Shown here: positions 17,455 through 19,111 of the stretch, piece after piece | Layout: every line of letters starts with the position of its first letter | How positions within the stretch are numbered: position 1 is the first letter of the stretch | IMG/VR virus record: IMGVR_UViG_3300036766_000032 | Span: 1 to 64,000 of that record | Origin: a virus | Length of the DNA stretch: 64,000 nt | Reading direction: 5' to 3' (one strand) | Made by a program: the position numbers and the translations under genes | The notes under the pieces: generated by a model | Databases searched by the model: none | What the model saw: only the letters and a program-made list of their open reading frames with translations | Told to the model about the DNA's origin: nothing

Positions 17455-18332
17455 GTAACTTAGATGTTGAAGTTGAAGTCGAAGAAGTTAATTTAGCAAA
17501 GGTTCGACGTCCGGACGACTACCACTGTTCTTGTAAGTGGTGTAGAAAGTTTCTCGGGGTTCTTCGTAAAAAAGATGGGACGTTCTATAGTCGTAACGAG
17601 CGACGAGCGTACTACTCGAAGGAAGAAATCGCCAGCACTAAGGACGAGGGTGGGGGTCACTTGGCCAAGACCCCTCTTCACATTGCGAGATGGGCGGTTC
17701 AGACGTACACAAAAACGGGGAATGTGGTGTTCGACCCGACGATGGGGGCCGGGACTACGGCAGTCGAATCGTTGCGCCTGGGGAGAGCCACGTTTGGAAT
17801 CGAACTGGAGTTCGTTGATGTGATCCTAGCGAACATCAAAATAAACAATCCTTTCCAGATGAACTGCAAAATAGTGAGAGGAGATGCACTAGACATGACG
17901 AAGATTCTATCCAAGAACTTGGACTGGACCCCGTTCGACCTGATCGTAAATAACCCCCCATACTTCGGGGACCAGAGCCAAAAAGGAATGGGTCAATCCG
18001 GGTATACGTACACTCCGAACGTTAAGAATATCGCTCTGTCAAAGGGGGATTATTACTCGAAGATCGAGAGCCTCTACCGACAATCGAGCGATCACTTAAG
18101 GTCGGGGGGTCACCTGGTCATCGGGGTCAAGGATCAGATGAAGAACAAAAAACCAGACATGCTCCACGAGAAGATCAACAACGTCATCTCGGATACGTGC
18201 GGACTCGTTTACGTTGGAACAGCGATCCTCCCTCACCACCCCAAGACGTTATTCTTGAACTCGTACCCGAAACAATACCCGGGGGTGGTGATTCCCCTGT
18301 ATCAAACCATCGCAGTTTGGAGAAAGCCATGA
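17451..18332 (+). CDS. amino (N6-adenine/N4-cytosine) DNA methyltransferase-like protein
   Basis: VFDPTMGAGTT SAM motif, GIELE, GDA, catalytic NPPY. Confidence 0.8.
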   Translation: MSNLDVEVEVEEVNLAKVRRPDDYHCSCKWCRKFLGVLRKKDGTFYSRNERRAYYSKEEIASTKDEGGGHLAKTPLHIARWAVQTYTKTGNVVFDPTMGAGTTAVESLRLGRATFGIELEFVDVILANIKINNPFQMNCKIVRGDALDMTKILSKNLDWTPFDLIVNNPPYFGDQSQKGMGQSGYTYTPNVKNIALSKGDYYSKIESLYRQSSDHLRSGGHLVIGVKDQMKNKKPDMLHEKINNVISDTCGLVYVGTAILPHHPKTLFLNSYPKQYPGVVIPLYQTIAVWRKP

Positions 18333-19111
18333 AACTATATTCTGACCCAGAAGAAGCTATCAAAGCGACGACGACTCAGATTCAGAGGATGAACCACCTA
18401 ATTCACACGGAGAAGTGGCAGGGATTCGACATCTCGAAGAAACCGGAAGCTGAGATGCATGAGATTCTGGAGTGGGATTTCAAATTCCCCATGGTGGCCG
18501 AAGACCTCGGGTACTACCGGAAGCAGATCCAGCCGAACATCCCATGGGCCGACGACCACTTCGAGGAACGCGTCTCGGGGGAGCCGGTCAATCCCGGAGA
18601 GACGTGGAAGAACTGGCCTTGGGCTAACAAGGCGGATGAGTCCCGAATCTTCGACGGGAAGTTCAGTCACACGTACATGGAACGGTACTGGCCGAAAGTT
18701 ATGAACGGGGTTGGCGTAGAGGGGCACCGATTTCTATATGGAGACTTGGACGACGTCGTCGCGCTTCTGACTAACGAGCCCCTGACTCGTCAGGCTTACC
18801 TCCCAATCTTCTTCCCGGAAGACACGGGAGCGGTCCACGGTAATCGGATTCCATGCACACTAGGCTATTGGTGGATCCGACGAGGGAACCATCTCCACGT
18901 CCACTACCCGATCCGATCATGCGACTTTTACCGTCACTTCCGAGACGACATCTACCTTACGGTTCGTCTTACGATCTGGTTGCTCAAGGAACTTCGAGAG
19001 AAGTCTCCGGAGAAGTGGAACAACGTCAAACTCGGAACTTACTCTATGTGGATCGGAAGTCTTCACCTGTTCCGAAACGATTTCATAAAACTGTTTGGAG
19101 CGACCAAATGA
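18329..19111 (+). CDS. thymidylate synthase homologue, dCMP-modifying type
   Basis: TRQA, catalytic PC, RSCDFYRHFRDD, GSLHLF; GGAG RBS before ATG 18329. Confidence 0.85.
   Translation: MKLYSDPEEAIKATTTQIQRMNHLIHTEKWQGFDISKKPEAEMHEILEWDFKFPMVAEDLGYYRKQIQPNIPWADDHFEERVSGEPVNPGETWKNWPWANKADESRIFDGKFSHTYMERYWPKVMNGVGVEGHRFLYGDLDDVVALLTNEPLTRQAYLPIFFPEDTGAVHGNRIPCTLGYWWIRRGNHLHVHYPIRSCDFYRHFRDDIYLTVRLTIWLLKELREKSPEKWNNVKLGTYSMWIGSLHLFRNDFIKLFGATK

Follow-up and report, generated by a model that had tools for sequence, protein, structure and literature searches.

A phage-specific clade of thymidylate-synthase-fold proteins with the cytosine-specificity aspartate: probable deoxycytidylate-modifying enzymes outside the published product rules

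The gene at positions 18329-19111 of IMG/VR virus record IMGVR_UViG_3300036766_000032 encodes a 260-residue thymidylate synthase (TS)-like protein which is probably a deoxycytidylate (dCMP) C5-modifying enzyme and not a thymidylate (dTMP) synthase. The stretch of DNA analysed, called the window here, covers 64 kb out of the complete 75.9-kb record, which has direct terminal repeats. The sequence is present in one DNA run, a sediment metagenome that is its probable source; no RNA run is listed. The protein belongs to a phage-specific clade with more than 4000 database relatives, labelled 'thymidylate synthase' or left unlabelled and largely missed by Pfam-based surveys. This clade breaks every product rule, yet it keeps the cytosine-specific aspartate.

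TS-fold enzymes are the entry to nearly all known pre-replicative phage pyrimidine modifications, namely 5-methylcytosine (5mC), 5-hydroxymethylcytosine (5hmC), 5-hydroxycytosine (5hoC) and 5-hydroxymethyluracil (5hmU), and their product is now predicted from sequence by simple residue rules. TS homologues with Asp at position 177 (E. coli ThyA numbering) have already been published as cytosine-modification enzymes with a deaminase and a pyrophosphatase nearby. New here are the finding that each product rule fails, residue by residue, the test of co-occurrence with ThyX, and a sub-lineage, including the window, which lacks the second TS-fold protein (the partner) and the kinase encoded near most relatives and is linked to C5-methyltransferase and AsnB genes. 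The partner-less form found in the window is the simplest clade member to test, with one gene and no second TS-fold subunit.

Active site, fold and clade

The boundaries of the gene are sound, since both ends overlap a neighbour: an ATGA joins the ATG at 18329 to the end of the preceding gene, and at the other end the stop codon at 19109-19111 overlaps the ATG (19108) of a downstream deaminase gene. By these overlaps the upstream N6/N4 methyltransferase gene, the TS-like gene and the deaminase gene are all translationally coupled. In the open reading frame (ORF) translation, the motif of the 260-residue protein is RSCDFYRHFRDD, and the translation of 18329-19111 (+ strand) includes IRSCDFYRHFRDD; the motif residues are I-R-S-C-D-F-Y-R-H-F-R-D-D. 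The main positions, all on the + strand, are as follows.

18329-19111, +: coding sequence of the TS-fold enzyme (P0001), 260 aa, member of the RSCD..RH.RDD clade, match to PHROG 160
18536-18538, +: Asn70, where E. coli has the folate-activating Glu58 and T4 has Glu60; MAFFT and hhalign against T4 gp42 agree
18668-18676, +: His114-Thr115-Tyr116, with Tyr116 at the C5-proton-abstraction tyrosine (Tyr94/Tyr96) and His114 at T4 Ser94, from alignments
18845-18847, +: Arg173, three residues before the catalytic cysteine (Cys-3; Leu143 in ThyA, Asp145 in the T4 deoxycytidylate hydroxymethylase, dCH), the marker of methyl versus hydroxymethyl transfer, from alignments
18854-18856, +: Cys176, catalytic nucleophile (E. 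coli Cys146, T4 Cys148), from alignments
18914-18916, +: Arg196, start of the RSxD motif
18914-18925, +: Arg196-Ser197-Cys198-Asp199, phosphate/ribose-binding RSxD (E. coli 166-169), from MAFFT and hhalign
18935-18937, +: His203 (Arg+7), replacing the glycine that lines the cofactor site (Gly173/Gly175); His in 84 of 92 representatives
18947-18949, +: Asp207 (Arg+11, the second Asp), base-specificity residue, aligned to E. coli Asn177 and T4 Asp179
19064-19072, +: His246-Leu247-Phe248 (E. coli His207-Leu-Tyr209), in which the 3'-OH-binding tyrosine becomes phenylalanine, from alignment

Both MAFFT and hhalign place Arg196 and Asp207 on Arg166 and Asn177 of E. coli ThyA and on Arg168 and Asp179 of T4 gp42. 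Asp207 also aligns with Asp196 of the Xp12 TS, and His203 with a glycine in E. coli, T4 and Xp12. The reference motifs, taken from public records of E. coli thyA, T4 gene 42 and the Xp12 TS, are RSCDVFLGLPFN, RSNDVVFGFRND and RSSDLFVGLPYD, respectively. An initial annotation of the gene had reported an aspartate eleven residues after the RS arginine (codon 18947-18949), had equated it with Asn177 of E. coli and Asp179 of T4, and had noted that the usual glycine at +7 is a histidine; translation (Arg196 to Asp207), the two alignments and the three reference sequences bear out these readings in turn. The chain stops 12 residues past Phe248, against 55 past Tyr209 in E. coli, so that the C-terminal lid which covers the folate in ThyA is missing.

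The TS fold itself is certain. The protein matches PHROG 160 ('thymidylate synthase') with an E-value of 2.8e-26, and an alignment-based AlphaFold (AF2) model built on 84 sequences has a predicted local distance difference test (pLDDT) score of 97 and a predicted template-modelling (pTM) score of 0.93; a single-sequence model with a pLDDT of 38 was discarded in its favour. The top Foldseek structures are MilA, the HY126 dCMP hydroxylase and T4 dCH, with template-modelling (TM) scores of 0.6-0.68, and PDB 9iqc/9iqu (5-hydroxy-dCMP synthases) are among the best. By sequence, the best PDB match is the cytidylate (CMP) hydroxymethylase MilA (0.0024 with the single sequence), and the family profile retrieves MilA (6e-11), the HY126 dCMP hydroxylase (1e-9), L. 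casei TS (1e-8) and T4 dCH (1.5e-7). The protein matches no Pfam family at E <= 0.01, so that it falls short of the PF00303 gathering score; PF00303 has no match anywhere in the genome at E <= 1, and the clade is out of reach of a T4 gp42 tblastn at E <= 1e-5. The protein is about equidistant from all characterised branches, with the cytosine-nucleotide enzymes nearest. Among its ESM Atlas neighbours are viral fusions of a TS-fold domain to a dCMP deaminase (444 aa) or to a thymidylate kinase (437 aa).

The homologue search yielded 4122 relatives, and an exhaustive search of 50%-identity representatives yielded 666. The top match of the latter search, P0126, is 4876 aa long with 48 separate matched stretches, which could stem from an anomaly of assembly or gene calling or from a repetitive construct. 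Full-length relatives with 39-52% identity, nearly all named 'thymidylate synthase', occur in GenBank records of phages infecting Brevundimonas, Serratia, Yersinia, Pseudomonas, Streptomyces, Gordonia, Mycobacterium and Microbacterium.

Conservation was assessed in 92 representatives clustered at 50% identity or less and in an alignment of 84 sequences (A1). Asp207 is present in 91 of the 92 representatives and invariant in A1; it is a signature of the clade, far beyond chance, and the RSCD..RH..DD motif was read in nearly all of 80 related IMG/VR loci, with Asp207 kept in each locus where it was read. The clade retains the superfamily residues Cys176 (91/92, invariant in A1), Arg196, Ser197 and Asp199 (Asp in 89/92), Tyr116 (Tyr94; invariant), His246 (His207) and Arg154 (Arg126'). 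Specific to it are Arg173 (92/92, invariant in A1), His203, Thr/Ser177 at E. coli His147 (91/92), Phe248 at Tyr209 (80/92) and Asn or Asp at position 70 (53/92 and 25/92, respectively). His114 is found in 84 of the 92, and further substitutions include Arg202 (Leu172), Asp/Asn206 (Phe176) and Gln155 (Arg127').

A maximum-likelihood tree was built from 77 clade members and six references: E. coli ThyA, the Xp12 TS, T4 gp42, the T4-type dCH of the Microbacterium phage Juanyo, the 5-hydroxy-type enzyme of JK45, and PhiSH19 gp047, a ViI-type TS homologue. In this comparison with ThyA and hydroxymethylases, of the kind envisaged in the initial annotation, the clade is monophyletic (Shimodaira-Hasegawa-like approximate likelihood-ratio test, SH-aLRT, 98) and all six references lie outside it. 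The Xp12 TS groups with E. coli ThyA; the reference branches are long, and the order among them is unreliable.

In-frame LAGLIDADG endonuclease inserts lengthen some members from public metagenomes (P0127, P0222, P0250 and P0151) to 330-640 aa. Such intein and LAGLIDADG insertions suggest an important, conserved gene. The insert in P0151 is an intein near the catalytic cysteine region, reminiscent of the T4 td intron.

Residue rules and characterised relatives

The rules for substrate choice point to a deoxycytidine nucleotide. An aspartate at position 177 confers dCMP preference, according to work by Liu and Santi, by Graves and by Hardy that PMC13326640, PMC8670742 and PMC6400193 cite. Asp207 conforms to this rule, and the ThyA pair Asn177 and His147 is replaced by Asp207 and Thr/Ser177; Thr or Ser at the His147 position is common to the cytosine-specific T4 gp42, MilA and HY126/JK45-type enzymes. 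Preference for deoxyribose is associated with Ser167/Arg126' and preference for ribose with Ala/Lys (PMC5175136): the protein has the deoxyribose-type Ser197/Arg154, and not the Ala176 and Lys133 of MilA/BcmA. The T4-type pair Asp179 and Cys148 has its counterpart in Asp207 and Cys176, while the ThyA set Cys146, Arg166-Ser167-x-Asp169, Tyr94 and His207 is matched by invariant or near-invariant equivalents.

The rules for the product fail one after another. A hydrophobic Leu143 predicts methyl transfer, and Asp or Glu at Cys-3, which serves to activate water, together with Ser or Thr two residues before the tyrosine (Tyr-2) predicts hydroxymethyl transfer (PMC6400193; PMC13326640); D145N inactivates T4 dCH (PMC6400193). 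With Arg173 at Cys-3 and His114 at Tyr-2, the protein fits neither class. 5-Hydroxy-dCMP synthases are diagnosed by D169N (PMC13326640), and the JK45 gp043 and PDB 9iqc sequences read RSQN; the equivalent here is Asp199. In place of Glu58, Leu143, Gly173 and the lid of ThyA there are Asn70, Arg173, His203 and no lid, and of the Xp12 type, with its ThyA-like scaffold, PF00303 match, Gly-Leu-Pro segment and C-terminal extension, the aspartate alone is shared. For the controls the rules work: T4 and Juanyo have Asp at Cys-3 with Asp177; JK45 has Glu at Cys-3, RSQN and Asp177; Xp12 is ThyA-like with Asp177; and in PhiSH19 Cys-3 is Asp, with an Asn close to position 177 but shifted by one residue. 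Applied to the TS-like protein, the rules indicate a substrate class and no product. The initial annotation had left the product class open, and rightly so, for the methyl, hydroxymethyl and hydroxy rules (PMC13326640, PMC6400193) all fail to classify the protein. Moreover, the folate positions Glu58, Leu143, Leu172, Gly173, Phe176 and T4 Ile81 are polar or basic in the alignments, which makes a different co-substrate possible, as in the flavin-dependent 5-hydroxy-dCMP synthases.

Each characterised system shares part of this pattern. T4 gp42 (EC 2.1.2.8; PDB 1B5E, 6A9B) has the same short TS fold (about 250 aa) without the long ThyA C-terminus, the catalytic Cys, RSxD, FR(N/D)D with the cytosine-specific Asp, and a Thr after the Cys; a dCTPase, a dCMP deaminase and, in clade relatives, a deoxynucleoside monophosphate (dNMP) kinase accompany both. 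However, identity is about 17-23%, the protein lies outside the T4/Microbacterium-phage dCH branch, and it has Arg for Asp at Cys-3, His for Ser at Tyr-2, Asn for Glu60, His for Gly175 and Phe for Tyr218.

The metavirome Asp177 TS proteins with an in-cis deaminase, typified by Xp12/PaMx74 (PMC8670742; bioRxiv 10.1101/2024.12.05.627091), likewise combine a TS carrying the Asp, a deaminase, a nucleoside triphosphate (NTP) pyrophosphatase and a family-A polymerase, and there too cytosine modification was deduced. Unlike the clade, they were found via PF00303 and resemble ThyA, Xp12 having retained the Gly-Leu-Pro segment as well as the C-terminus, and those tested make 5-methyl-dCMP; PF00303 is matched by some clade members but not by the window protein, and the active site bears a different signature.

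The flavin-dependent 5-hydroxy-dCMP synthases (RB69 gp48, DLP3 gp80, HY126 AfhB; PDB 9IQC/9IQU) are short enzymes acting on dCMP and are among the best structural matches; they carry Asp177, a Thr following the Cys, Phe in place of Tyr209 and a residue other than Gly at 173, whereas the window protein has Asp199 (no D169N) and Arg instead of Glu at Cys-3. JK45 gp043 keeps the Glu58 equivalent, judged by spacing before a conserved Trp, and the window protein does not. Finally, the CMP 5-hydroxymethylases MilA/BcmA (PDB 5B6D) provide the best PDB sequence and structure match and share the Asp that makes for cytosine specificity and the Thr that follows the Cys. In contrast to the deoxyribose-type Ser197/Arg154 of the window protein, MilA has Ala176/Lys133, and its Asp at Cys-3, Glu68, Tyr218 and long C-terminal extension have no counterpart.

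Genomic context

Genes around the TS-like gene were assigned as follows.

7404-9233: PolA
9571-10242: PD-(D/E)XK nuclease
10274-12004: SNF2 helicase
12464-12898: short MBD4-like HhH-GPD glycosylase
12888-13337, +: Nmad1 (DUF1599)-like protein, from Pfam
13274-14722, +: AsnB-like glutamine amidotransferase, from Pfam
14655-15320, +: all-alpha NTP pyrophosphatase of the MazG/dimeric-dUTPase type (Pfam dUTPase_2 1.3e-8, PHROG 12184), start codon uncertain
15292-17454, +: C5-cytosine-methyltransferase-like protein, interrupted by an intein (Pfam DNA_methylase, Intein_splicing, DUF559)
17451-18332, +: N6/N4 amino-methyltransferase of the NPPY type (Pfam N6_N4_Mtase 1.7e-13), coupled to the TS-like gene
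19108-19680, +: dCMP-family zinc deaminase (Pfam dCMP_cyt_deam_1 1.7e-14, PHROG 174), ATGA overlap
20190-21080: DHH phosphoesterase
21540-22442: ligase

This arrangement fits a T4-like dCMP cassette. The pyrophosphatase is orthologous to the 'dUTPase' of the same cassette in Serratia phage Serbin (34% identity, 4e-28), and may be the supplier of dCMP. The deaminase is orthologous to that of Serbin (26% identity, 1e-13) and only remotely similar to the Xp12 deaminase; in the BLASTP alignment with the Serbin orthologue, its GYNG and HAE motifs are set apart by some 40 additional residues. Published neighbourhoods of Asp177 TS genes have a similar cassette of MazG-type pyrophosphatase, TS and dCMP deaminase (bioRxiv 10.1101/2024.12.05.627091), with the deaminase sought within 3 kb of the TS; in the window its start overlaps the TS stop.

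Neighbours of the TS-like gene in the 80 related IMG/VR loci were classified by phmmer and hidden Markov models. A dCMP-family deaminase lies beside or near it in 60 loci, a dNMP kinase in 49 and a TS-fold partner in 55, and a pyrophosphatase also occurs. The 55 partner-type loci have the order kinase, (pyrophosphatase), hidden TS-fold partner, TS, deaminase, (PolA), which Serratia phage Serbin and Yersinia phage P744 share and Brevundimonas phage Strzyga shows in part. The partner belongs to PHROG 34294, a family of unknown function. A PHROG 34294 protein of about 270 aa is encoded directly upstream of the TS-like gene at 8141-8980 in L001, 5192-6001 in L006 and 5211-6044 in L007, and in Yersinia phage P744 the partner is labelled 'pyrimidine hmase synthase'.

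Three loci (L009, L010 and L013) and the window have a C5-methyltransferase-like gene in the slot of the partner, either immediately upstream of the TS-like gene or separated from it by one gene. In L009 and L010 it is accompanied by Nmad1, AsnB and pyrophosphatase genes in the order of the window, and L010 has an orthologue of the N6/N4 methyltransferase at the equivalent place. The partner was not found in the window's genome by protein or family search; the upstream 293-aa protein was considered as a hidden TS-fold partner and rejected. In the tree the four C5-methyltransferase-linked TS genes are monophyletic (SH-aLRT 85) and lie within the partner-linked ones, for which a single loss or replacement of the partner is the simplest reading. 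The Nmad1-like and AsnB-like genes are probably a module of this sub-lineage outside the TS reaction; a literature search on Nmad1/DUF1599 gave nothing useful. In the remaining class, 19 of the 80 loci, the TS stands alone. Two such solo loci were examined: L048 encodes an FMN barrel like that of IMP dehydrogenase/GMP reductase (IMPDH/GMPR) and an unannotated 267-aa ORF (4789-5955 and 6821-7624), and L028 an NT5C deoxypyrimidine 5'-nucleotidase (7077-7622), so that solo members represent a third, different pathway context. The active-site motif is identical in all context classes.

The intein of the window's C5-methyltransferase-like gene sits at the motif IV HPEC catalytic site and carries a DUF559/MTES_1575 (Vsr-like) endonuclease. 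Its L009 and L010 orthologues, of 453 and 407 aa, have no intein, and an unusual motif X Lys is common to all (KQTGKAMP there, KQVGKFMP in the window). The operon opens with the HhH-GPD-like and Nmad1-like ORFs (12464-13337), of which the glycosylase may handle deamination products.

Neither ThyA nor ThyX was found in the window's genome. PF02511 was used to search for ThyX in 48 related viral records, with completeness estimated by CheckV. ThyX is clearly present in 16 of the 48, and 12 of these belong to the 23 records with a completeness of 90% or more; its carriers include the record of L009, the window's closest relative. Since ThyX already makes dTMP in these phages, they have no need of a second dTMP synthase, which weakens the view that the clade serves only dTMP supply via 5-methyl-dCMP. 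The combination of ThyX, deaminase, pyrophosphatase, kinase and TS-like enzyme reproduces the T4 scheme of td, cd, gp56, gp1 and gp42.

Candidate reactions and products

The initial annotation had proposed dCMP or a derivative as substrate and had held a plain 'thymidylate synthase' label to be wrong. The first proposal is supported, as an inference, by the invariant Asp, Thr/Ser at the His147 position, the cytosine-nucleotide enzymes as nearest structures, and the cassette; the label is very probably wrong, given a true ThyX in 12 of 23 near-complete relatives.

In the mechanism considered here, Ser197, Arg196 and Arg154, the last from the other subunit of a putative dimer, would hold the deoxyribose phosphate, and the cytosine would be read and protonated by Asp207 with the help of Thr177. 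Cys176 would add to C6, the activated C5 would attack an electrophile, and the C5 proton would be removed by Tyr116/His114. According to the alignments, the site has no Leu143, lid or Glu58 and is lined by Arg173, Arg202, His203 and His114, so hydride transfer to give a methyl group looks unlikely. 5-Hydroxymethyl-dCMP is favoured because the site is open, polar and lidless, so that His114 or His203 could activate water, and because the co-occurrence with ThyX resembles T4 more than Xp12. In the corresponding T4-like pre-replicative cassette, the MazG-type pyrophosphatase would turn dCTP (and dUTP) into the monophosphate, the TS-like enzyme would modify dCMP, and the coupled deaminase would direct a share of the (modified) dCMP towards the uracil/thymine branch. 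This account as a whole, with dCMP as substrate and water-quenched 5-hydroxymethyl-dCMP as the likeliest known product, is offered tentatively, and the identity of the product with somewhat more reserve still. Should the product prove to be a base already described, many phage genomes, among them those of therapeutic and model phages, will have to be re-annotated, and their DNA may be resistant both to restriction enzymes and to certain sequencing chemistries.

Several observations weigh against this account. The T4 hydroxymethylase signature (Asp/Glu at Cys-3, Ser/Thr at Tyr-2, Glu60) is absent, and the mapping of the N-terminal half, including Glu58 to Asn70, comes from sequence and profile alignment only. 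No recognisable dNMP kinase was found in the window's genome with PF02223, the Serbin kinase as query or a Walker-A scan, and without one the route of modified dCMP to the triphosphate is hard to see in this phage. A C5-methyltransferase in the same operon would have no target if every cytosine were C5-substituted. The missing kinase and this methyltransferase suggest that replacement may be partial, or that the deaminase may pass the product on to the uracil branch. In the open-access literature searched, no paper characterising a clade member and no enzymatic or DNA-composition data for one were found; publications on Serbin, P744, PMBT14, Strzyga and Muddy/JacoRen57 are genome reports without DNA-modification data. 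A paper on UDG-PolA in T-modified phages was set aside as dealing with other phages.

A serious second possibility, though less likely than not, is that dCMP is activated through Cys176 and combined with a co-substrate other than methylene-tetrahydrofolate, to give an undescribed C5 group outside the methyl, hydroxymethyl and hydroxy types. The pocket is basic and polar, which would suit an anionic donor or cofactor. No published product rule fits the clade, the lid is absent throughout, and the substitutions of Glu58 by Asn/Asp70, Leu143 by Arg173, Leu172 by Arg202, Gly173 by His203, Phe176 by Asp/Asn206 and T4 Ile81 by Asn95 are clade-wide. A change of cofactor has a precedent within the fold in the flavin/O2-dependent 5-hydroxy-dCMP synthases (PMC13326640), and some solo members lie beside the FMN-type IMPDH/GMPR-like barrel. 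However, Trp96 is kept (T4 Trp82 by hhalign, E. coli Trp83 by MAFFT), as are an aromatic residue at 93 (E. coli Trp80), Asp199 and Tyr116, so that folate could still be used in a remodelled pocket; there is no candidate donor, and the pocket is deduced from alignments. With a different co-substrate, an undescribed cytosine derivative would be present in thousands of phages, including cultured phages of Serratia, Yersinia, Pseudomonas, Gordonia and Mycobacterium, to which the sub-lineage would add a second, DNA-level modification by C5-methyltransferase and amidotransferase. A new product would provide an added base and enzyme chemistry for biotechnology.

An Xp12-like deoxycytidylate methyltransferase is improbable. 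It would make 5-methyl-dCMP, to be incorporated as 5mC and/or deaminated to dTMP, a thymidylate bypass in a phage which has no other thymidylate synthase. A genome without ThyA, ThyX and dNMP kinase would suit dTMP as a product that the host can process, the TS and deaminase genes follow each other as in Xp12, and the MBD4-like HhH-GPD glycosylase of the operon would suit 5mC-rich DNA. Moreover, five of seven deaminase-linked Asp177 TS homologues tested made 5-methyl-dCMP, and the deaminases preferred 5mC nucleotides (bioRxiv 10.1101/2024.12.05.627091). Nevertheless, the clade lacks the features of reductive methylation (Leu143/Trp83 packing, Glu58, the Gly-Leu-Pro segment and the lid), the Xp12 TS falls outside it next to E. 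coli ThyA, the window deaminase is but a remote relative of that of Xp12, and ThyX, present in half of the complete related genomes, would be superfluous given such a bypass.

An ordinary thymidylate synthase converting dUMP to dTMP, the label that almost every related phage record in GenBank carries, is very improbable: the fold, the catalytic Cys, RSxD, the Tyr94 and His207 equivalents, an adjoining dCMP deaminase that could supply dUMP, and a genome with no other TS all agree with it, but Asn177 has become an invariant Asp, His147, Glu58, Leu143, Gly173, Tyr209 and the lid are changed or absent, PF00303 does not match, and ThyX accompanies the clade in many genomes. An inactive or regulatory TS-fold protein, such as a nucleotide-binding subunit, is scarcely credible and, even jointly with an ordinary TS, quite unlikely: Glu58 and Tyr209, described as conserved in all characterised family members, are missing, but thousands of sequences show no variation in the nucleophile Cys, the Asp, Tyr116, Arg196, Ser197 and His246, the gene is a target of inteins and homing endonucleases, and in the sub-lineage the TS-like protein occurs without a second TS-fold protein.

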